Shown here: in pieces, positions 1 to 43,200 of the stretch | Numbering within the stretch: the stretch's first letter is position 1 | Layout: each line of letters starts with the position of its first letter | DNA from: a virus | Lineage: Duplodnaviria > Caudoviricetes | Virus record (IMG/VR): IMGVR_UViG_3300028045_000002 | Span: 1-53,509 of that record | Length of the DNA: 53,509 bases | Reading direction: 5' to 3' (one strand) | The notes under the pieces: generated by a model | What the model saw: only the letters and a program-made list of their open reading frames with translations | The model's database searches: none | Told to the model about the DNA's origin: nothing | Made by a program: the position numbers and the translations under genes

Positions 1-127
1 TATCGACTTCATTCTCCTAAAGAAATGCGCCTTTGCGTATTCAGGCATGTAGTGGGAGTTGTTGCCATCAGTAAACTTGAAAGCCTGAAATGCCACAACC
101 GTCTTATTGTCAACACTGACATCCGTG
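1..127. repeat. Exact 127-nt terminal direct repeat, copy 1 (circular contig overlap)
   Basis: tatcgacttc...acatccgtg at 1-127 is identical to 53383-53509. 127 is a common de Bruijn k-mer size, and an ORF reads in frame across the junction. Confidence 0.97.
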
Positions 128-3100
128 TTGAAGATCAGGAATGGATTACTGAAGTCGCCAAAGTCGTACTCGTAAACAACGTAATACTCTACATACCCAT
201 CAGTGGACCAGCTCACCTCTCCGGGGACTAGATCAAGATCAGGGTTTGATATCAGCATCACATTGATAAACAGGTTTGTCTTTTTTGTGCTGTCGTAATC
301 ACGCTGCTTCGTGAGTGTCGCCAAATTGTCGGTATAATCATAGTCAGATTCTGCAACAATGTTTGACCCGCCACCGCCCACAAGATCGTGCCATTCACCG
401 TGAACGGCATACTGATTGTGGAGCAAGTCCCAATGAGTTGACAGGGTTGTGGAAGCTACAACCGTAGGCGCATTGCCCTGCCTGAGCTTTATTGCCGCAA
501 GACCACCAGACTCCGTGCCACGCTTGAGTCCAGCGACAACCTCGCCATAAGGGATGACTAGGATGGTGACACGCTCAGAGTATGTCCGACTACCCTCGAT
601 AAGGTAAACCGCCCACAAGGAGATGTAGTAGCCAACTCCAGCAATTGCGTCTTCAAAGCGGTAGCTGATTTCCGACGTAAACTCTCCATCAACCCCGTCA
701 AGTGGCAAGCCATCATCGGGGCCAATTGGATAGGCCTCAGAATCGCTTGTGTTGTAACGTATCAATACGTGCTCAAGAAAGACGCTGTCGGGGGGAGACC
801 AGTAAAGCAGGAAAACATCCTCTTCAGCTTGAGCGCTGACACGAGTTGGTACTGGGCTGCCGAACAGAACGCCAGCCGTTGCTGGCTCTGAGTGGAAGAT
901 GTCAACATCGCCATAAATGGTCATGTTGAAAACGGAGTAGCTGTATGGTCCATCAGCCGGAACCGTGGAATCAACAAAGGTGCTATTGTCAGACGATATG
1001 TCGATGAGGTGAGTCCCCTCGTTCCATCCCGGAGGAGTGCCACCAATTATGCGGCGTATCCTCACCATGTAAGGCCACTCGCTAACCGGAGGAACCCAGC
1101 CAAGGTTCACATTGTCCCCATCAATCCCAGCAACAAGATTTGCCGGAGCTGGCGGAATAGTGTAGAAGGGTGAGTCATAACCTGTCGTTGTCCACATGTC
1201 GTAATTTTCGAGGACGATCTTGAACTGCATCACGTTGTTGTAGTAGATGATGCCGCCACCAGTATCCAGCAACTCCGAAAGATTTACATCGAATGACGTT
1301 AGGAGGTCGTCTGAATCAGCCTCTGACTGTGCAAGGAATAGGACAAAGTCAGCCTCGACAGACCTCTTGTAGTGCAGACTAATGCCCCTAGTGGCTGATG
1401 GCCCAGAGCCACCGTCAGCCCACTCTGTGTCATTGGCTGGCAAGGTCCAGCTGAGGGAGACTGTTGGGTTACCGCTTGCGTCCCAATCATACACATGCTG
1501 CAAGTCAATGTCTTCGGAAGTGAAGCCCCACGCCGGAGAGGCTTCAGACGTTATCGAAAGCTGTAGCGGAGAAGACGGCTGTTCTGCTGTATCGACAGCG
1601 TAAATGGAGTAGTAGTACAGGGTCGAGTACGCTGGAACGCTGTCAATGACTGACAAGCTTGTTGCTCCGGCTGCGGCATACGAGCCGGTAAATGGTGAGC
1701 CCTCAATCTCTGTCCCTGTTTCATAGGTCGGGAATCCAGTAGTGCCCCTAAAGATTCTGATGGACTCCAAGTCTTCATCAGCTGGATTGTCCCATTCCAA
1801 AAAGACTGTTAAGTCGTCAACTGAGATGGACCCGTTAAAGCAGGCTCCAGGCACATCATTCAGCTCAATCGTGTACTGGCCTCCAGTTGTGGCTATATTG
1901 CCAAAGTTGTCCTGATACGAGATGCCCCACCAGAATTCACCACCAGATGTCGATATGATCGGTAACATGATGTGGGGGTTGGCAACGACATCTGTAAACT
2001 CACCACTATCATCATCGCCCGGATAATCACCGTACCACCGCTCTTGAGAGAAGATGCCCCAGTGGGTGGCCTCCTTCCAGTCCGCCCAAGAAACCTGTTT
2101 GTGGCCAACATAATTAGTGCCAGCATCAGCGGGGACCGGAATTCGGCCAGCGGCAAACAGTGGGCCAGCAAACATGATCCAAACAGAGTCTATGTCATTT
2201 TCGCTTTCCGGCGGGAAGCTATTACGGTGAATCACCACACCATCATGTCCGGGAACGCCCATTGACAGGTAATGGAAAATTGAGACATCAGGGGCTGAAA
2301 CGTATCCATCGTCAGGCTGTGTATCTATATCGAGATCGGCAGCAGGCTTCCACTGGTAGAACGATTGAGTTGACGGAGTTCCATCCTTGGCGACAAGCCA
2401 CGCATTGAAGTAGTAAGTGGTGTCAGCAATCAAGCCTTCAAGAACTGAAGTCTCCTGATACTGATACATCGTTCCGTTATGGGGGATAAACCCCTGATGG
2501 GTTGATGACGGGTCATAGTCTTCGTTTATCGGCGTTCCAGCCCCAATGGTTGCCGGGATTGCCGATGTGGAGTACCTGATAATAATCCCGCCAAGGCCCC
2601 AATTCGGATCATTGTCAGGGTCGTTAAAGTTGACCTTTGGGAATGTGGTAGTATGCGTGATGCTGTAGAATGTGGACGATATCAGCTCAAAGTTTCCATC
2701 ATCAGAATCCTCGCCAAGGTAGCTCTCCCAATTCGGGGGATCGGCAGGTTCGTCACTGGTCACCAAGAACAACATTGTTTGCGGCTGATCTTCAATGTCG
2801 ACCGCAGCCATATCCCAGCGAGACACGGTTGTCGCAAGATCCACAAATCGCACACCCGCCGCCAAGCCGGTTGGGCTGGTGTCCAGCGAACGTAAATCTG
2901 TCCCAGACGTTACGTCAAAATCAAGACCAAGCACATGGGCCGAATAGTCTTCTGGGAAGCCAGCGGAATACGTCCTTGTCGGGCTATAGGCTGGAGTGTA
3001 TGCATGTTCTCCAGTTGCGAGCATGTCATAAGCCCACCAGTCAAGCTGCCATGTGCTGCCATTCTCAAACGGGTTGCCGGGAGCCATCAAGAGCCCGTCC

Positions 3101-4554
3101 CGCCTTGCGATGTACCTGACAAACCCCTGCTGCCACTGGACGGCACAGGTTCTATTGTTTGGCGATGGAAACTCATCAATTGGATTGGAAGTATCTGCGG
3201 CTTCAAGCAGCCGGATATCACTCAAGTCTATGTCGTAATAATCAAGCCTATCGGTTCCACCCGTTACGCCACCGGCTCCATCAGCTTCTCTGGTGATGAG
3301 AGGTATCGTCATATGGGCTCGCCAGCTATTGGCCCCATCATACAGATCGAAATATCGCCAAACTAACCCAATAACCTCATCGGCAGCATTGACCCCAAGT
3401 TGTGGCGACATCCTTCTGTCCCACCCGTTTATTCCTCCACGGTGAGTGATCTGGATTGGCAACGTGTCAGTTCCAGAGCCAGTATATGTCAAGCCGAGCA
3501 AGTTTCCTGCTGGGCTTTTTGCGGTGACCCCCATAAGGTCATCCCAAGTCGGATACCCAGCCCCTTCAACCCAACCAGCGTCTTCGTATTGAAACGAGAA
3601 AACTGGAACATGGGAAGCCCTAGGCCTGTGAGAACCGTAAGAGAATGACGACCTTGGGATTGGAGGTAAGCCGCCATCCCCGCCAACCCCGTCAACGTCT
3701 GTCGGCGGCTCCCACTCTTCGGGATCGTACCCGTGACCACCACCCGTTCCATACCACTGGAATGCGTCAGGGTGATTTCTTGCTGAATCAAGATTTATGG
3801 GTTCAAAGCCACCCGGAAAGCCACGAGCCGGGAAAGTCCCGCCACTACGTATCCACTCAACCTCTTCGTCAACAATAACCATGTGATCATGAACAAACCA
3901 TGCAACCCCATAGGGATCGGCTCCATTAAGCCTGAAGAGCAGTCTGTTGTGAGCCTCGATTGGGGCCTCTGTGAGTGACAGGTAGTCCTCTCTAGAGTCT
4001 ACGCTGGCGGCGTTTTCTGCAGACCTGAAGTTGTAGAAGAGCCAGTCGTCTCCGAGTCTGACCTGAGTCGCTGTTAGGGTGCCGTCAACATCATCGAAAG
4101 CAGCATCTCTCACCATCAATCCATGCCGATACGTTCTAGCATCAGGGCTTGCAGCTTCCCTGTAAGCCATGACCTGCCAGAAGAACGGTGATGTCCCACC
4201 TTCAAGCGTACCGGTCATCACAGGAAAGCTCCAGCGGAACACTTCAGCGGAACCGTTGTGGCCGACAAATACGTTTGAGATCATCTGCTTGTGGAATAAC
4301 CATGAATCATCTGAATGAAGCATATTGTTGTGCCCGCCACTTGGGACACGGAGAGTTCCAGCCTCATCGTCAATGTCGAAAGCTCTGTCGCTACCAAACA
4401 GTGCATCAGGATTCAGGAACCTTGTCCTGCGAGGGACAGTGAGGTCGTAGTTCTCCCCATACCACAGCATGTCTGGGGTAATATCCATCCTGCTGGCCCT
4501 TGTAACCATCCCTTTGGACCAGTCCGGAAACTGAAAGACCTGCTTTGTGGACAT
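1..4554 (-). CDS. 5' part of a ~2056-aa tail nozzle/stabilisation-type protein with Fn3-like repeats (continues across the junction into 51766-53382)
   Basis: ATG at 4554 with CAGGAG RBS just after the stop of 4557..4925. I read the frame by hand and found no stop from 4554 to 1; it is in frame with 51766..53478. N-terminus MSTKQVFQFPDWSKGMVTRASRMDITPDMLWYGENYD; internal WDNP..RIFRG..YYYSIYAVD repeats. Absent from the ORF track because it runs off the edge. Confidence 0.9.
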   Translation of the reverse strand, partial: MSTKQVFQFPDWSKGMVTRASRMDITPDMLWYGENYDLTVPRRTRFLNPDALFGSDRAFDIDDEAGTLRVPSGGHNNMLHSDDSWLFHKQMISNVFVGHNGSAEVFRWSFPVMTGTLEGGTSPFFWQVMAYREAASPDARTYRHGLMVRDAAFDDVDGTLTATQVRLGDDWLFYNFRSAENAASVDSREDYLSLTEAPIEAHNRLLFRLNGADPYGVAWFVHDHMVIVDEEVEWIRSGGTFPARGFPGGFEPINLDSARNHPDAFQWYGTGGGHGYDPEEWEPPTDVDGVGGDGGLPPIPRSSFSYGSHRPRASHVPVFSFQYEDAGWVEGAGYPTWDDLMGVTAKSPAGNLLGLTYTGSGTDTLPIQITHRGGINGWDRRMSPQLGVNAADEVIGLVWRYFDLYDGANSWRAHMTIPLITREADGAGGVTGGTDRLDYYDIDLSDIRLLEAADTSNPIDEFPSPNNRTCAVQWQQGFVRYIARRDGLLMAPGNPFENGSTWQLDWWAYDMLATGEHAYTPAYSPTRTYSAGFPEDYSAHVLGLDFDVTSGTDLRSLDTSPTGLAAGVRFVDLATTVSRWDMAAVDIEDQPQTMLFLVTSDEPADPPNWESYLGEDSDDGNFELISSTFYSITHTTTFPKVNFNDPDNDPNWGLGGIIIRYSTSAIPATIGAGTPINEDYDPSSTHQGFIPHNGTMYQYQETSVLEGLIADTTYYFNAWLVAKDGTPSTQSFYQWKPAADLDIDTQPDDGYVSAPDVSIFHYLSMGVPGHDGVVIHRNSFPPESENDIDSVWIMFAGPLFAAGRIPVPADAGTNYVGHKQVSWADWKEATHWGIFSQERWYGDYPGDDDSGEFTDVVANPHIMLPIISTSGGEFWWGISYQDNFGNIATTGGQYTIELNDVPGACFNGSISVDDLTVFLEWDNPADEDLESIRIFRGTTGFPTYETGTEIEGSPFTGSYAAAGATSLSVIDSVPAYSTLYYYSIYAVDTAEQPSSPLQLSITSEASPAWGFTSEDIDLQHVYDWDASGNPTVSLSWTLPANDTEWADGGSGPSATRGISLHYKRSVEADFVLFLAQSEADSDDLLTSFDVNLSELLDTGGGIIYYNNVMQFKIVLENYDMWTTTGYDSPFYTIPPAPANLVAGIDGDNVNLGWVPPVSEWPYMVRIRRIIGGTPPGWNEGTHLIDISSDNSTFVDSTVPADGPYSYSVFNMTIYGDVDIFHSEPATAGVLFGSPVPTRVSAQAEEDVFLLYWSPPDSVFLEHVLIRYNTSDSEAYPIGPDDGLPLDGVDGEFTSEISYRFEDAIAGVGYYISLWAVYLIEGSRTYSERVTILVIPYGEVVAGLKRGTESGGLAAIKLRQGNAPTVVASTTLSTHWDLLHNQYAVHGEWHDLVGGGGSNIVAESDYDYTDNLATLTKQRDYDSTKKTNLFINVMLISNPDLDLVPGEVSWSTDGYVEYYVVYEYDFGDFSNPFLIFNTDVSVDNKTVVAFQAFKFTDGNNSHYMPEYAKAHFFRRMKSI

Positions 4555-34200: not shown

Positions 34201-37200
34201 ATGTGGTCCATCTCTGTATCATACTCAATCGTGTGAGCGGCTCGCTCAAGGTCAGCGTGCTCGGCAACCAGCTTCTTATGCTTGGTATGTTGTGCCATAG
34301 CACTAAGGCCCCTGATGGCAATCTTGGGACGCTGGAAGATGTTGCCCTTGGTATTCAAGATGCCGTCAAAGATATCGTAGATATGCTTCTGGACATCTGC
34401 GACAACTTTGGCTGCGTTTCTTTTTTGAGCTGAAGCCCTGATCCAGTCCTTGTACCATCTCTTAAGGATGGGAACACGGTTAACGAATGACCTTGGTAGC
34501 AGGGTCTTCTCAAGGAACAAGTTGACTCCACCCTTACCCATTCTCCCCAGTGACTTCTCAAGGTTGTATCGAGCATCACGCAGATTCTTCCATGTCGGAA
34601 CATCAAGACCGGCTGTATAGCCACCAATGTCAGAGATCATCTTCATGGCTTCTTCGACCCTTGCGCCATGGTCAAAGTACATGTCCTTGATTACCCCACC
34701 AAGGATCGGATGGTCCAGAATCTCTTCCGCAAGCTTACGCTCAGATTCATGAAGCTTGACCAGCTTCTTGTTTGAGATCTCCCCAGAGTGATAGAAGGTT
34801 TCAGCGGGCTGCGCTCCAGTGTCCTCAATGATGACAGCCTGAGACACCTTCCTGTTTGGTCTCTGTAGTCCACGCTCAAGCTCCTTGCGAAGCTCTGCGC
34901 TCTGGATTTCAAGGTCCAACCTGAAGAGCCTGTCTGACCGGTAGTTCGTGTCCAGCGTTGACTGAGTAAGCATCTTGTTGAAGGCTGGCACATTGTAGTC
35001 TTCGGCATAGTAGACCTGCCCATCATAGGCAGTGTTGGCGATAGCCCTGAGCGGGGAATTCTCTGGAGCAATGGCACGAAGAGCGCTCTTGGAGACATAC
35101 TTGACTCGGCCATCAGCAGTGTAGAAGATGGCCGTATCTTTAAGCTCAAGCCCCTTAAGATCCTTACCAACATTCGCCTGCATCATCTTGCCAATTTTAA
35201 CGGCAGCAGCCTTGGCTCCACGGGGCTCATAGATGGCGGCATCAGGAGAGCGCATAGGCATTGCAACGCCTACCCACTTAGTGCCATTGTGGACCAATCT
35301 TGGAACCTTACCCCACCTGCCAGCCTTACCCTGCTTACCCAGCGGGCCAACAGCGCCATTATGAAGCTGAAGCAGGATGTGCATGATGGTGTCATACGAT
35401 GTCGCATTCGGTATCGTCACCCCACGCCTTGTTCCGAGAGCAGTGTGTATTGCCCCTCTTGCTTTTTCAGAGTGGAGCTTGCCAATATATGCCTCGGGGT
35501 TGTACAGCCTGTCTATTGCCTTTGCAATCCCATACTGCAAATCAACCTGAGTCAGTCCCTTGAACTCCCACGCCTTGCCGACCTTTGTCGGTGTGATGTG
35601 AGAGAACTGGTGATTCTCAGCAAGGTTCCTCGATGTAGTCCTCATCACGCCATTGTTGGTGTAGCCACGAAGCATGGTGCCAAGATCGTTCACCATCATG
35701 GAGTTCTTTGAGACGTTATCCCAAAGCGTCTCCTCTACTCGCTCAAGCACCTTGATGGAGTCTTTGTTCTCCTTTGTCTTTTCAGGCACTATGGAAGAAG
35801 CATTGCTGATATGGTCATTGGCCAAGTATCTGGAGAACAGCTCTTGAGTGTAGACTCTGTGCATTCCTCCGGTAATCTTTGGAGTCAGCGAAGTCTCCTC
35901 AGCCCTAGTAACAAGCTCTTTCCTGTAGTTGTCGATGACCTCTGATGGCAAGCCCTCCTTTTCCATGCGGCGGATCTCTGGCAACCCGCTCGTGATCACA
36001 GAAAAGTAGCTGTCAATGTTGGCGGGATTCATGGAGTAGAGATCACTGAACAGGCTGCCAGCTGTGGCGACCATCTTGTGAGTCAGCGTTCCGTTGTTAA
36101 CGGTGAGTCTTCCCTTGGCATCAGCCCCAAAGCTTAGTGGCCGCTTCATATCAAGATTGCTACCACCATCAACGATATTCTTCAGGGTGTTAAAAGCCTC
36201 TATCTTTGCCACAATGCCAACCTCTTTTGCGTTGGCTCTATCAGGCTGAATGACTCTATTTATGTCACCAAGACCCCTTGAGAAGTCCTTTCTCGTGGCT
36301 TGAATTGCGGTACTTGCAGCCTCGCCAGCATCCTTTTCTCCAGTCTTGAGGCCGTGTGCCGGAAGCACCATCTCCCAAAGAGTCTTGTACCAGCCGGGAG
36401 TAACCTCACCCTTGGCCCCATGCCATGCTGGCTTGAGCTTCATCTTCTTGCCATCGGTATAGGCTTTGGAATTGAGGAACATGTACTCAAGGAGTGAGAG
36501 CTCTTTTTTTGTCCCGTCAGGCATCTCCACTTTGGTAGTAAGCCAGTGATCAACCTCTTTGCCAGTAGATGAGTAGCTGCCAGCCTTGACTGGGAGAATC
36601 TCTCCGTCAACAGCTGCCTCAAAATCTTTGCCTCCGGGCTCAAGTTTGCTGATCTTGAATTTCCCAGCTTTGATTTTTATTGGAGCACTAGAAACAGTTC
36701 TGGTTTCCCCGGCAAGTCCATCGACAGAGCTTTCTTGACCTTCCAAGGTCTCCACCTTGCCACGCTTTAAGGCCGCTTCAAATGTGGCTTTATCTATTTC
36801 GACAACAGTTGGAGTGGACTCGCCCTCAATATTTTCGGAGACGTCAAAAGTCTCTGGCTCTGATTCTCGCATTGCCTTAGCATCTCGAGCCTTGCCATTG
36901 AATCGTGTAATAGCATACTCACGAGCTTGACTCAGGTCGCCAGTAACTGAAGTGCCAACACCCTTACCGGGGAATCTGCGGCTGAACATGTCATCCTTGG
37001 CCGCAGGCAGAATGAGATTACCTTCAGCATCTACTTTGAATGCGCCAGACTGCCCCCTGTAAACCCTATCCTTTCTCTGGGTTGCTCCGCCCCAATCAGA
37101 GTCGGTAGTTCCGTAATACTCTTCCCTGGTCCCGCCTTCTTTGGCATCCGGAAGCTTTATCTTGGCTGGCTTCTTACCACTGATGACATCGAGGAAGTCT

Positions 37201-40200
37201 TTGGTTGTCTCTATCCCATCAAAGACTCCACCAATGAGGTACTTTCCATCAGCATCCCTTGAAGAGATACCCAGCTGAGCGAGAGCGGTAACGTCTCTCA
37301 TAAAGTTGGCAACCATACCGATACGCTTCTTGTACTCACGCTGCGAGGCGTTGTACTCCCACATATCCTTGTAGCCAGCAGGATCGGCAAGGATCTCCTT
37401 CATCCCAGTGAGGATCTCAGGGTTGATCTCATACTTTGACATCTCACTGATGTGATCCCGCAACTTCTGTGGAGTGTCATAGTGGAAGTAGACAACGTCA
37501 CCGTCAGTATCACGCTCAAGCCTCGTGATATCTTCGTGGTTCATCTCAACAAACTTGGTGTCCCTTGATTCAGCGACTTCCCTTGCATGGAAGGGCTTCC
37601 TGTCGTGCGGCCCTGTCCGTGGCATCGAGTGGCCAAGCATGTCGATACCCTTGAACTCTTCAGTGTGCCAAGCAGTGTCTTTGGCAAGGTGGTCAACGAC
37701 CTTAAGCAGGCCGCCAAGAGACTGGGTGTTGGGGCCATCAGCACCGAACTCCATCTCAAGCCTACCAATTGCATCTACAAGCTCAAAGTCAAGCTTGTCC
37801 CTGTATTCCTGAATGGACTTCTTGTTGCCGAAGTACTCTGCGAGAGTTGTAGCTTGTTCTTTATCTCCACCTCTCGCCTCGATTACCTGCTCCCACAACT
37901 TTACGTCATTGGCGGCGTATGGTTTGTCTCCAACGTATATCTTTGTGTTCTCGGTAAGCCTGCGGCTGGCAACTTCGTATGGTATTCGGACTTGACCCTT
38001 TTGGAGTGTTCCACTGAGATCATCAAAGATGTGTGCTCCAAAGCCACCACGCTGCTTGGCCTTGAACAAGCCCCGCTTGATGCTTCTGTTGGCAATCGTG
38101 TCGTAAAGATCTGTCGGGTCAAGGAACAGCCCCGGACTGATCCTTTCGGCAGCAAGGATATCAGCCACAACATTACGCTGGTAGATGCTACCCGCATCCT
38201 CAAGTGAAGCCTCGGCCAATCTCCCGCCCACCAGTGAGCCGAGAGTCTCTGGCCCTATGTCACCCGTCATCATCTTCCAGAACGGCCCCTCAGGGGCATA
38301 GAGAGCCTGTAAGCCCTCCTCCCTAAGCCTGTAGAACATCTCATGGGCATCATTACCGACGCTAAAGATCTCACCAACGTGACTCTCAGTTAGTGGATAG
38401 ATCTTGTGGTCAAACTCTTTGAGGCCAAGTTCCCTGATATTGAGGGCGTTCTTCATGACAGAGGCAGATGCATCTTTCTTGCCGCCAGCTATAGGCATCT
38501 CGCTGCTTTTTATCTTAGCATCCATCACTGCCTTGAGACTCTTCTTGCTGCCTGTGCCGTAGGCTTCCTTCATTGCCTTTTGAGTAGCCTCAATCAATCT
38601 CGGGCGGAACTGAGTGTCCTTGACAACAATACCCTTGGTTGGCACTAGGCTCCGGTACTCAAAATCATTGGAGTTGGTGTCCAATCTCACTTCATAGTCA
38701 CCATATTTGCCAGTATATGTTGGGAATCTTTCGTGACCACTGCTTACCACATCGGTAAAAAGCGGCTTGCCTTGTGTCATTCCGCCCATATCTATAGCGT
38801 CCTGACCATAGTTTCCGGTAAACATCTCTCTAAGCTCTACCCCGATTGCTCTGACCAGTGTATCCAGATTCCTCAAGTCTCTAGTTATCTCCCCACTGTG
38901 CCAGTCAGCCATGGCATTTCTGAATTCACCACCAGCCTCCACTGTGCCAGTACCCATGAACTCTGACTGTGGATGATCGACAATGTACCGTTTGCCAGCT
39001 ATCTCGGTTACTGCAACCCAGTGTTGAATGTTAAAGTTTCCGGCTGGAGACTTCGCATCTATGATGACAACCTTTGAGTCAAGCCCTTGATTCATCAGTT
39101 GATGCTGGACCTTGTTTGCACACCGGACACATAGATTCTTTTCAACTGTAGCTGTTGTGCCCTTACCAAGCTCGCCAATCTTCAACTCAAACGGCTTCAG
39201 TTCTAGTGGTGGCTTTGCCTCACTCTTGCCTTCAAGCGCCCTCACATCTGCCCATTCAACACCAGTCGGCTTGATCTTTGTGGAGTCACCAATGGACACC
39301 ATGTCAATCTTCTGGCCAGTCAGCTGTTCCAGCTTGTTCATGAAGGCTTCTGTATAGCTGTCGTTCCTGAACATGGGCTTGTCGAGGTAGAAGAAGTCTC
39401 TATCAGGATGAGAGGCAAAGAACTGCCCCTTGAAGGCATCACTGTAGTCTTTACCCATGACATAAGCGGCAACTCTGGCTGCATCCTGTCTCAGATACGC
39501 AGCACCATCGAGAGGAGCCCTGTTGAGTCCAGCGGCTTTCATCTCAGCCATGATCTCAGGTGTGGCATTCTCCAAGAAGAACACATTGAGACCACCATCC
39601 CACTCAGCATCTTCAGCCAGCTTACGCTTACCGAAGTCACTCTCCCTGAACTTCTTCCACTGAGTCGTGCCGGGACCATAGTCAAGGCGCATGAAGTCAC
39701 GGCCATAGATACTGTTAAGCCTGTTGGCGTAATCAGCGATTGATTTGCCAGCAACGTCAGGATTGAGGAGATTTTCAAAGGTTGCCTTATCAACAGAACT
39801 GCCCAGCCAAGCCATTGAAAGCTCGTTACTGATCTTGTTAGCGTCCCACTTGGCAGATCCGGGCTTACTATTCAAGAAGCTGAGCAGTGCTTCGGCTTGA
39901 TGCGACTTCATCCAGCTCTTGAGTCTCTTGCCTCCACCCTGTTCAACCTTGAACAGCTCATTAAGTAACCCCTGAACCTGCTCCCTTGCCTTGGGGGCAT
40001 CAAAGCTTACGGCCAGCATCGAGTCTGCGTTGCCGGGAATAATGAGAGCGCTGAGGCCGTCGAGGGTCTCGAGAGCTTCACGGATAGGCTCGAAACTATC
40101 AAGCGGAACCATCTCTCCCTTCCCATCCTTGACCCACTCACCGTTTTCATCCCGAACATACTTCAGCTTCTCAACGTCAATCTTGTCAACAGTCCTTACT

Positions 40201-43200
40201 GTGGCCCCAGACTTTTTGATAGCGTCAACCATACCACCAAGGCCACGGCTGATGAACCCATGCACTCGGGTCTTGATCTTTGAGTTATACTCGGTCTTCC
40301 CGGTTGACTTGTTCTCGGCCATAGTCGCAGTGATGGTAAGGGTCTCTCCGGCAGTAGACTGGGAGACCACATGGGCCAAGTGATTGAGCATCTTCTCAGA
40401 CACAGGGCTTCCACCCCAACGACCATTACGAACAGAGTCGTTGATCTCAGGAGCCTTTCCACCCTCAGTCACATGCTTAATGGCTTGCTCAACCCACTCA
40501 GGATCTCTGATACCAGAGAAAGAGTAGGCCCCATTCTCATCCTTGCCACCAAGAAGACCCTCAACAAGAGCTGACCTGATGTCTTCCGGGCTGATGCCCT
40601 GCCCCTTCTCCACCTTGCGCTTCATTGCCTCATGAGTCATTAGCTGGGCAACTCGCTCAATGCGAGGGTCAAGGCCGAGATTGGAGATGAAGTCACGATG
40701 TCCTGTGATTTCAAACCCCTGATTCTCCTTTATCTGGAAAACCTTGCGACCATCTTCATTCATGAAGCGGCTCTCAATGTCAGCCCTGAGAACCTCGTTG
40801 GCCATGAACTCACCCTCGATAGCATCCATCGCCTCGTTGATCCTCTTTGCCGTGACATCCTTGTGAATGGTGGACTTCGCTGTCATCAAGCTCATCTCCG
40901 GAGAGATGATGCCCATACCGCTGAGCGATGTGTAGATGTAGGATGCATATGCAGGGTTAACATGATTCAGGGCGTTGCCTATTCTGGCAACAGATTCAGG
41001 GAGATGTCCCTCTGACAGCATGATGCTGGAAAGCCGCTGACTTGCATCGTATCTGGCCTCGGAGTTCCCGCCAAGCACGATCGCCTTAAGGACGTTGAGA
41101 GTATCCTCAGGCGGCACACCGTCCACACCCTTCATGGGATCCCTCAAGATCCCAACCTTCTTCATCTCTTTAACCATATCCCTGAGCCAGAAAGCCCCAG
41201 TAGCCCCAATAACAGATTCAACAGCAGGGCCGATATCAACCTTCAGCTGGCCTCCCGGCTCAGCGGCACCGATGATCTCAAGAGAGTTGACCAGCCGGTG
41301 AGCCGCATTCGTTACGTCTCCACCAGCCAACAATGCAAGGTTCTTTCCGGTGACAACTCCAGTTTGCTCGGCAATATTGAGAAGGTTGATCCCCTTCTCC
41401 CCGACCTTGGCGTAGTTCGCCTCAAGGACGTTGCTCTGGGCAAGGGTTAAGGTAACTTCCTTGACTGCCCGCCCCTTTGTGACCGACTCTGTTTTCGCCA
41501 CCATCGCCATAATGCGCTCAGCAGGACTATCACCTGTGGGAGCAAGCGCAGGGCCATCGCCCCACATCTTGTGAATATCTTGAACAAGACCTCTCACCTC
41601 CTCAAGCTCGGGGGTATCCCCCTGAAACAGGGTTTCTCCAGACATGATACCGTGGACTCTGGTGTGAGGGGCAAAGTAAGCAAAGTCACGAAGAGCTGAG
41701 AGGCTCTCTAAGCCCCTCCCGCCACCAAGGTGGTCCCCCACGCCCTTATCAATAGCCCCAAGCCTCTCAGCAAGCTCTCTGGACTGCTGAGGGGAATCTA
41801 CGGTCAGTACTTCGTGGACCACTCCGGGAAATAGAGACTGTCCGGTACGTTCAGCCTTCGCAAACAGCTCAAGCTCTGCTGGCGTGGAGACATCACCCTC
41901 AACCTCAATCCTCAGTGGCCGCTTATTCTTGAGTAGGCCAGTCTTTGCAGAGACAGGAATCTTGCCAGTACCAAACAAGCTATGGATAGCTTTCTCGACA
42001 CCCTCAGACATTGCGGGGAGAGTGTCATTCTTCTTCATGGTGGAGAAGATTGACTTGAGCCAGCCAGAAAGCCTCTGAAAGACAGTCTTCATGGAGTCGT
42101 TGGGGGCTTTCCCGCTCTCAAGATACCGCTCAAAGAGCTTGGCAAAACGCTCTTCATGCTTTTTCTGCCACTTGCCATCCTTGATACCAAACTCAGACTC
42201 GATAATAGCGAGATGCTCTCCACCCAGGTCACGCCTGAAGAGGTGTCCTATCTCATGAACGAGGGACTGTAGATTGGGAGCATTCAGCCCTCGGATGACA
42301 GCCCTGCCATCCTCCATGAATGTAATCGAAGCCTTCTTCTCGCCCTCACCCTTCTCGACAGACGCTAGACGGGAGGCGTACCACTCAGCTGGATCTTTAC
42401 CCTCAGCCACACCCCAAGCATTCGCTCTGGCCTCAAGTAAATCTACAGCACTTCTGACCTGAGCCTCTGGAACATCAGGGAAAGCCTTGACGGCTTGCTC
42501 GACAATCTTGCTCTTGGCCATAGCACTGGCACTCTGCTCATCAGCCTGCATCACCGTGCCAAGAAGATCTCCCTCAACTTCAAGATATTTCCGGCCAAGC
42601 TTGTGCAACTCTTCACCGAAATAAATCCTGTCAAATGTTTCAAGCTCAAGATAGCCCGGACCCTTGCCGCCCACGCCAAGCGGAATGTGCTCTTCGAACA
42701 AGGCCTGCACCGCAGCAATCTTGCCGGGAGACAGGTTCTTGGAATCTATATTCAGTCTGCGGAGCCAGTGAGTTACATTCTTACCGAACTCACCCTCTGG
42801 GATAGCACCCTCAGGCGCAGTCTCCAGAGCCTTCAACACAGACTCCCTGAGTGGTCCAAGCCTTTTCTTAACCCCTTCGCTTTCCCAGAATTTTTCAGTA
42901 AGATCCTGATACTTTCTGAATGCAACATCCATTGAGATGGTAGCAAAGGGTGAGTCGTCAGGGCGGGAGATAGGGACACCGGCAAGCATTGCTCTGGCTT
43001 GCATGTACCCCTTGTAGCGGCTGTCAGTGATGGGTCTGGCGGCAACTGGTGTCTCAAATGCGGAGTGACTGGCCATCATCGTGGCAAACGTCAGGCTTGT
43101 AGCCATGTCTACCCAGTCAAGCCCGTGCTTGGTCAGGTAGCTTCCACCCTCACCAGACAGTAGCGAGCCAAAGAACTCTGGTTCAGTTATGACAGCAGAA

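Follow-up and report, generated by a model that had tools for sequence, protein, structure and literature searches.

Exchangeable enzyme modules appear to decorate the largest protein of the tailed phage recorded as IMGVR_UViG_3300028045_000002 (Caudoviricetes), and one of them interrupts what is probably an RNA polymerase. The record (hereafter the window) is a complete virus sequence, 53,509 bp long and bounded by direct terminal repeats. Its largest gene is a single open reading frame (ORF) of 4,530 amino acids (aa), P0001 (31290-44882, minus strand), which lies in a minus-strand gene block and forms a backbone into which a cassette of about 245 residues has been inserted (aa ~1884-2128; 38499..39233; borders approximate to about 15 aa). 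The cassette recurs elsewhere as a separate domain, retains a Cys-His-Asp(Asn) set throughout its family, and may be a distant relative of the toxin domains typified by the C3 deamidase domain of Pasteurella multocida toxin (PMT) and Salmonella SseI. The blocks on either side resemble, with moderate support, the two barrels of a single-chain RNA polymerase of the crAss gp66 type. All features of P0001 described below are on the minus strand.

The insertion is most directly seen by comparison with homologues of the backbone. An exhaustive HMMER search of 1.84 billion representative proteins (query aa 1650-2849; E ≤ 0.001) returned 15 proteins, which fall into four separate blocks along the query: one at aa ~1683-1875, seven at ~1893-2120, three at ~2146-2578, and four at ~2576-2793. 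The junctions in three long homologues that span the site were then mapped by BLASTP, with full-length P0001 compared to these sequences and their cluster mates. In P0002 (2,348 aa), residues 1079-1252 and 1255-1718 correspond to aa 1684-1879 and 2129-2568 of P0001; in P0023 (2,843 aa), residues 1744 and 1779 meet aa 1874 and 2147; and in P0024 (3,477 aa, from a 53.7-kb contig), residues 1671 and 1704 meet aa 1880 and 2145. Because all three have 3-35 residues where P0001 has about 250-270, a gap visible column by column, aa ~1884-2128 is by alignment a true insertion, as the first-pass annotation of this DNA had proposed in calling the segment an indel. Direct repeats that might mark an insertion footprint at its flanks are only short and of chance size (10-16 nt).

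The inserted segment leads a life of its own. Seven of the 15 proteins match the cassette alone and carry it, by HMMER and BLASTP, as a separate domain (P0008, P0010/P0020, P0011, P0013, P0014, P0015, and P0016). Three are complete small stand-alone proteins (P0008, 281 aa; P0015, 317 aa; P0016, 248 aa), the 2,648-aa P0010 is an unrelated protein that bears the module at its C-terminus, and P0014 joins it to a cpYpsA SLOG domain. To judge from these contexts, the module moves between proteins. Three word-index protein searches gave no match besides P0011 itself. An alignment of the cassette with seven relatives from other proteins (eight rows, 24-30% identity to the cassette) leaves Pro1897, Gly1906, Cys1918, Ala1943, Pro1946, His1954, Gly1963, Pro1971, and Gln1972 invariant; position 1969 is Asp in six rows and Asn in two, so that conservation of the Cys/His/Asp(Asn) set is evident at the level of the alignment and goes beyond a chance occurrence of the motifs. 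A metal-binding CxxC site in NLCVRC was considered and rejected because the second Cys varies among the eight rows. No Hint or intein family turned up in the Pfam scans, and an intein or self-splicing reading was set aside. Every family member found comes from a metagenome or virome source, and together they would constitute a small, unnamed, metagenome-only family of predicted Cys-His-Asp(Asn) enzymes.

The motifs that first drew attention to the segment lie in the 4,530-aa ORF where they had been placed, namely, IDMVSIGDSTK at aa 1859-1869, NLCVRCANKV at aa 1916-1925, and QHWVAVTEIAGKRYIVD at aa 1953-1969. Their order is as described; the Cys motif, said to come directly after the STK motif, is separated from it by 46 residues, and the proposed range 38480-39230 corresponds to aa 1885-2135. 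The catalytic core (aa ~1893-1979; 38946..39206) consists of a helix starting at the Cys and a beta-sheet. It contains the proposed nucleophile Cys1918 (codon 39129..39131), His1954 (39021..39023), and Asp1969 (38976..38978), with the invariant Pro-Gln at aa 1971-1972 two residues past the Asp. A C-terminal subdomain of ~130 aa (aa ~1995-2125; 38508..38900) is conserved together with the core in six of the eight rows and has a conserved F-x-P-x-L-I-P motif near its end.

An AlphaFold2 model of the cassette (mean predicted local distance difference test score, pLDDT, 74; predicted template modelling score, pTM, 0.56) places a helix at model residues 43-57, strands at 62-70, 77-87, and 90-95, and then a helix-and-sheet C-terminal subdomain of three helices and a six-strand sheet. 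Cys1918 is model residue 44, the second residue of the 43-57 helix, in blocks with pLDDT of about 89-91; His1954 (His80) lies in strand 77-87, and Asp1969 (Asp95) is the last residue of strand 90-95. The model thus agrees with the arrangement earlier proposed from the letters, a helix-start Cys, a strand His, and an Asp after it, and it puts the His and Asp on consecutive strands. The order of elements and the placement of these three residues, a putative triad, are as expected for a papain/transglutaminase fold and lend that assignment some, if weak, support.

Structural comparison points the same way in aggregate. Foldseek against the PDB ranked arylamine N-acetyltransferases (NAT) at the top (best E 3.9e-3) and retrieved PMT chains at probability 0.6-0.8 over 58-63 columns. 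A search independent of Foldseek, covering 48,161 chains, gave 681 chains at Z ≥ 2 with a best Z of 4.9 (root-mean-square deviation, rmsd, 4.4; 110 residues aligned), its upper rows including GdmF/NAT, TglA, TGase, LapG, vasohibin, PeiW, protein-glutaminase, SseI, transglutaminases, NlpC/P60, a C39 peptidase, and PMT. When the 992 Foldseek chains were looked at a second time, 43 of the best 50 proved to be Cys-His-Asp/Glu enzymes (NAT/GdmF, TglA, TGase, vasohibin, PeiW/P, SseI, and PMT), and the remaining seven matched the C-terminal subdomain only. Across the fold searches, the best Z of 4.9 goes with an rmsd of 4.3-4.4 over 108-110 aligned residues. The single fold scores lie in the common range, and it is the enrichment for Cys-His-Asp enzymes that carries the weight. 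A fold search of BFVD with the cassette gave nothing at E ≤ 0.001, and the C-terminal subdomain found no usable match in the ESM Atlas.

Sequence searches lead to a narrower set of relatives. When the whole 4,530 aa were scanned with Pfam in 30 tiles, the sole signal fell on the cassette segment. A 135-aa piece matched Tox-PL-2 (PF15643; E 0.0065, 17.1 bits against a cut-off of 25) and Tox-PLDMTX (PF15645; E 0.0098, 16.5 bits against 26.1), both matches beginning at Cys1918, and a six-frame scan of the phage with PF15645 found the cassette site only (15.6 bits). Scanned singly, three of the eight family members match Tox-PLDMTX (best E 7.8e-4, below the cut-off) and one matches Tox-PL-2; P0020 also matches Tox-PLDMTX. 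Further single-member matches are to Acetyltransf_2 (two members), a C39-like family, and a transglutaminase-like family, which, like Tox-PLDMTX, we take to belong to the papain-like clan. The top feature match in the ESM Atlas is a Tox-PLDMTX cluster (score 0.88, rated a lead only). NCBIfam held nothing for the cassette, PHROGs nothing for the cassette or its flanks, and PDB sequence and profile searches returned chance-level rows only.

By these comparisons, Tox-PLDMTX is the best-supported sequence lead. In its PMT and SseI members, too, the Cys opens a helix and the His and Asp fall on the strands that come after it, and their triads (PMT Cys1165/His1205/Asp1220, spacing 40/15; SseI Cys178/His216/Asp231, 38/15), as given in the part of the source that treats them (PMC3498931), are spaced almost as in the cassette (36/15). 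The conserved residues of the family are described as "C, W, H, D, Q" in the relevant passage of Zhang et al. (2012). The cassette has the Cys, His, Asp, and, after the Asp, a conserved Gln (Gln1972) in that order, with no conserved Trp between Cys and His; a Trp after the His occurs in four of the eight rows. As fold matches, SseI scores Z 4.2 (rmsd 3.8, 102 aligned) and PMT Z 3.9 (rmsd 4.6, 107 aligned). The cassette differs from these toxins in its additional C-terminal subdomain of ~130 aa, which has a motif of its own, and in its setting: a phage encodes it, it lies inside a giant protein instead of forming the end of a secreted toxin, and its target, if any, would be bacterial. Tox-PL-2, a papain-fold toxin family of polymorphic toxin systems with a C-H-D triad according to the passage that describes it (PMC3482391), shares that triad with the cassette and matches its Cys-to-His stretch; of the Tox-PL-2 signatures, NxxH occurs in the cassette only (NIQH; none of seven relatives), and DN is absent. 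The cassette may thus be a distant relative of the PMT-C3/SseI (Tox-PLDMTX) and Tox-PL-2 toxin domains, a weakly supported assignment, and is a member of neither Pfam family because its scores fall below the curated thresholds. The papain/transglutaminase-like identity originally suggested for the module accordingly holds for its motif layout and is tentative as to family and fold.

The same annotation had taken the surrounding protein for the two barrels of an RNA polymerase. The upstream conserved block (aa 1680-1883; 39234..39845), which ends in ...IDMVSIGDSTKIKP and is kept in P0002, P0012/P0023, and P0024, is probably a beta-like double-psi barrel; the downstream block (aa 2129-2580; 37143..38498), kept in P0002, P0003, P0005, P0023, and P0024, probably comprises a connector and a beta'-like barrel. 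Within the latter, an SMPRxG-DxDxD stretch (aa 2416-2467; 37482..37637; MLGHSMPRTG...LERDTDGDVVYFH) includes the DxDxD motif DTDGD (aa 2458-2462; 37497-37511). The pattern R-D-x-D-[GW]-D is conserved in four lineages (DTDGD, DGDGD, DVDGD, and DNDWD), as is SMPRxG ~39 residues upstream of it, and the fourth motif position is Gly in three of the four, a residue also found there in cellular polymerases.

Local profile alignment gives weak matches of both blocks to gp66. As reference, gp66 of phi14:2 was aligned with 12 relatives found by tblastn (13 crAss gp66-family sequences) and compared by hhalign in local mode. The block with the STK motif aligns with PQLVAG...IVLDGVKVG of gp66, at about residues 1035-1070 (P 0.0013, probability 18.5%; the score of 25.4 was reached by none of 150 column shuffles, null mean 11.5, standard deviation 2.3), and SMPRxG...DTDGD falls in register with YRIPNQG...DFDID (P 0.038; reached by 5 of 150 shuffles); the two matches are co-linear. 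In the portions of the gp66 preprint that describe its architecture, a Connector of ~140 residues (1095-1238) lies between the barrels. In the alignment, the matching Lys is gp66 residue 1065, and the insertion point in P0001 comes ~16 residues beyond the aligned Lys. On the gp66 map this corresponds to the end of barrel 1 or the beginning of the connector, consistent with a position between the two barrels. On these comparisons, the identification of the flanks as a two-barrel RNA polymerase of crAss gp66 type is moderately supported. A Pfam scan of 39 other ORFs, picked by eye from the 116 listed, showed no other polymerase.

The parallel extends to gene architecture. Like P0001, the virion RNA polymerase gp66 of phi14:2 and the "transcription block" fusions of Crassvirales are giant proteins that have DxDxD and two barrel-like blocks with a linker or connector between them; homologous crAss-like genes encode proteins of about 4,000-5,800 aa, and in some crAss-like phages neighbouring proteins are fused into one polyprotein, as a passage of the gp66 preprint relates. 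The podovirus-type context (a P22-like portal and an SU10-type capsid) and the size of the giant protein also resemble those phages. In contrast, P0001 has no significant sequence similarity to crAss gp66 and no tblastn match in the phage collection, and the genome, at 53.5 kb and 51% GC, has a large terminase (TerL) <30% identical to that of any of the 50,697 phage records in that collection. A papain-like module between the barrels is not mentioned in the gp66 and QDE-1 passages of the literature.

The cassette is one of several segments that come and go along the backbone. A second (aa 785-971; 41970-42530), which contains HEIGH (HExxH) at aa 876-880, is absent from P0012/P0023, where the junctions are 700/700 and 747/747; it has no Pfam match, phrog_9880 (function unknown) matches aa 906-951 (E 2e-8, the only significant PHROG match), and it is possibly a zincin-like metallopeptidase of the kind proposed for processing in polyvalent proteins. 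A third (aa 2578-2780; 36543-37151) is absent from P0005/P0024, P0003, and P0023, occurs as an independent domain in P0004, P0006, P0007, and P0009, and has no Pfam match at E ≤ 0.05. Among the relatives, P0024 carries its own insert of ~500-600 aa in the inter-barrel region (residues about 1984-2540; three HExxH motifs at 2041, 2312, and 2443). As inserts are found between the barrels in two lineages, this region looks like an insertion hot spot. A cpYpsA SLOG domain (PF12694) lies at residues 503-643 of the backbone homologue P0003 (E 1.7e-16), at yet another insertion site, and at residues 89-230 of P0014 (E 2.4e-21), beside the papain-like module.

At least three segments of P0001 are thus absent from homologues, two of them being independent domains elsewhere, and relatives carry other inserts, which is the pattern of a polyvalent protein. 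The polyvalent proteins that Iyer et al. (2017; PMC5512222) describe are likewise huge multidomain proteins of exchangeable effector domains, and the cpYpsA SLOG domain occurs in relatives of both module and backbone, as it does in polyvalent proteins. Passages of PMC5512222 and PMC7824862 describe such proteins as carrying host-modifying enzymes that are injected with the phage DNA. The statement in the first-pass annotation that papain-like or transglutaminase-like domains occur in polyvalent proteins finds no footing there: the main text of PMC5512222 contains zero occurrences of papain, transglutaminase, thiol, NlpC, OTU, cysteine peptidase, or deamidase, so the Cys-His-Asp kind is not described in it under those names, and the peptidases that it discusses are zincin-like metallopeptidases.

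We consider it about an even prospect that the cassette is an effector co-delivered within an injected polyvalent phage protein. The giant protein would be a conserved backbone decorated with exchangeable enzyme cassettes, and the backbone probably holds a gp66-type RNA polymerase with both barrels in a single chain, which the virion would carry and eject together with the DNA. The cassette lies in a variable linker directly beyond the final conserved motif of barrel 1. Its Cys would attack, in the cytoplasm of the host, an amide bond of a host protein by glutamine deamidation, cleavage, or acyl transfer, such that a host factor is disabled or retargeted at the very start of infection while the adjoining polymerase transcribes early genes. 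The distribution of the module favours such host modification over self-processing.

A number of observations weigh against this proposal, in its parts or as a whole. The cassette model was built from the eight-row alignment only and is of moderate confidence; Foldseek against the PDB gave no match at E ≤ 0.001, the independent search none at Z ≥ 5, and Z below 8 can, by the tool's own warning, reflect a common arrangement. No Pfam match of the cassette reaches its curated cut-off (15-17 against 25-26 bits). Deamidase, protease, and transferase activities are all alike compatible with the evidence, and catalytic activity and a host target are predicted properties, as are the packaging and ejection of the giant protein. 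Codon usage, in which the segment had been thought by eye to favour A/T-ending codons, shows the expected direction at marginal strength: the G+C content of third codon positions (GC3) for aa 1885-2135 is 0.506, against 0.575 for the whole ORF and 0.584 and 0.572 in the 250-codon flanks, which is the 6th percentile of same-size windows in the ORF (~1.8 standard deviations) and not its minimum. That minimum belongs to the aa 2578-2780 cassette (GC3 0.453, 0.9th percentile), and in the HEIGH cassette GC3 is not shifted (0.578). What speaks for exchangeable cassettes is the pooled value, 0.51 for all three against 0.586 for the backbone (Fisher p 3.8e-4, a test that takes codons as independent and hence overstates significance).

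A further doubt concerns the backbone itself, and bears on any account of the cassette. It is somewhat unlikely, though to be reckoned with, that P0001 is no RNA polymerase, that its DxDxD belongs to some other metal-dependent function, and that the cassette resides in an ejection or tail-associated giant protein. The searches of the flanks with Pfam, PHROG, and PDB sequences and profiles brought up no polymerase, blastp against gp66 gave chance matches only (E > 1), whole-length hhalign against gp66 returned P 0.09 with the DxDxD mis-registered, the barrel-2 match is weak by its shuffles, and the AlphaFold model of aa 1680-2580 (901 aa, six-row alignment) has a pLDDT of 39.4 and no usable fold. 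What speaks for the polymerase is that two local matches to gp66 are co-linear, that the first is unequalled by any shuffle and the second is in register with the catalytic motif, that Gly is the usual residue at the fourth motif position, and that protein size and podovirus-type context resemble those of crAss-like phages.

Granting a polymerase, other roles for the cassette can be weighed by where else the module occurs and what it most resembles. A self-processing protease, active inside the capsid or once ejected, would cut the precursor in cis at or close to the borders of the cassette, and the single-chain polymerase would either be split into a beta-like and a beta'-like piece or be released from the modules around it. 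The location exactly in the inter-barrel linker suits such a role, true proteases belong to the fold group (vasohibin, LapG, and the C39 peptidase of PCAT1), passages of the gp66 preprint call fused polyproteins "likely cleaved" and gp66 in need of activation, and autoproteolytic domain release, by metallopeptidases, has been proposed for polyvalent proteins in the text of PMC5512222. Yet all three homologous backbones without the module at this site are still one chain, gp66 and QDE-1 act as single chains with a connector in the passages that describe them, stand-alone proteins of 248-317 aa have nothing to self-process, and the closest sequence families are effector toxins; on balance, we judge self-processing unlikely. 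The more specific idea that cis-cleavage after ejection, between the barrels, turns a gp66-like enzyme into a two-subunit beta/beta'-like one that is switched on in the host seems to us distinctly improbable.

Sequence leads to toxin domains that act in the cytoplasm, and a position between two parts of one probable cytoplasmic enzyme, likewise sit poorly with a cassette that opens the cell wall during ejection as a peptidoglycan amidase or endopeptidase of the NlpC/P60 or PeiW kind. The fold matches do include PeiW and PeiP (Z 4.2 and 4.0) and, at Z 3.7, an NlpC/P60 endopeptidase, and tail-associated NlpC/P60 proteins are known in phages, as noted in a passage of PMC7824862. Pfam gives no match to NlpC/P60, CHAP, or an amidase family, even with E allowed up to 10, and an M15 endolysin is encoded separately in the phage; we rate this role as very improbable. 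The cassette could, finally, be non-catalytic and its triad a relic: a passenger that is tolerated, or else a plug or adaptor through which the polymerase is regulated or anchored. A cleft-blocking domain keeps gp66 inactive in the virion, according to part of the preprint, and the backbone tolerates additions at several sites. Against a relic stands the retention of invariant Cys and His, Asp/Asn, and Pro-Gln at 24-30% identity in differing protein contexts, which is what selection on catalysis predicts, and a non-catalytic insert appears improbable.

Giant crAss-type polymerase fusions and polyvalent proteins have each been described already in the literature passages cited; those passages offer no counterpart to a PMT/SseI-type Cys-His-Asp module lodged between the two barrels, here in a phage lineage without a close relative in the collections searched, and such an arrangement would be new. 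If the effector reading and its polymerase backbone are correct, a lineage far from Crassvirales (53.5 kb, 51% GC) carries a gp66-like injected polymerase in which exchangeable enzyme cassettes dock at the linker between the barrels and at further sites. So far, the PMT/SseI deamidase group is known chiefly for toxins that act on eukaryotic cells; a phage version with a bacterial target would widen the place of this chemistry in phage-host conflict. The cassette Cys would offer a handle on the target through trapping with C1918A or C1918S, and the protein a concrete case for whether, and by what, giant phage proteins are processed. Were cis-cleavage to prove true instead, the enzyme would fall naturally between the single-chain and the multisubunit two-barrel polymerases, and its activation would be of a kind new for virion enzymes.

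The phage itself looks like a member of a little-known podovirus-like lineage. Its recognizable genes encode the SU10-type capsid protein, the P22-like portal, the large terminase, a Sak4-like annealing protein, and the M15 endolysin, the last of which adjoins the giant ORF immediately downstream. The giant-gene region has no DNA or protein match among the 50,697 phage records (blastn, tblastn), and a search of viral contigs for related loci with a 1,200-aa piece, P0008, and TerL as queries brought up no relatives. Most proteins of the structural block are without a PHROG or Pfam match, and the same 39 ORFs scanned with Pfam include no DNA polymerase. A second very large ORF, itself without a PHROG or Pfam match, occupies positions 1-4554 on the minus strand; it encodes >1,518 aa and runs off the low-coordinate end of the window.

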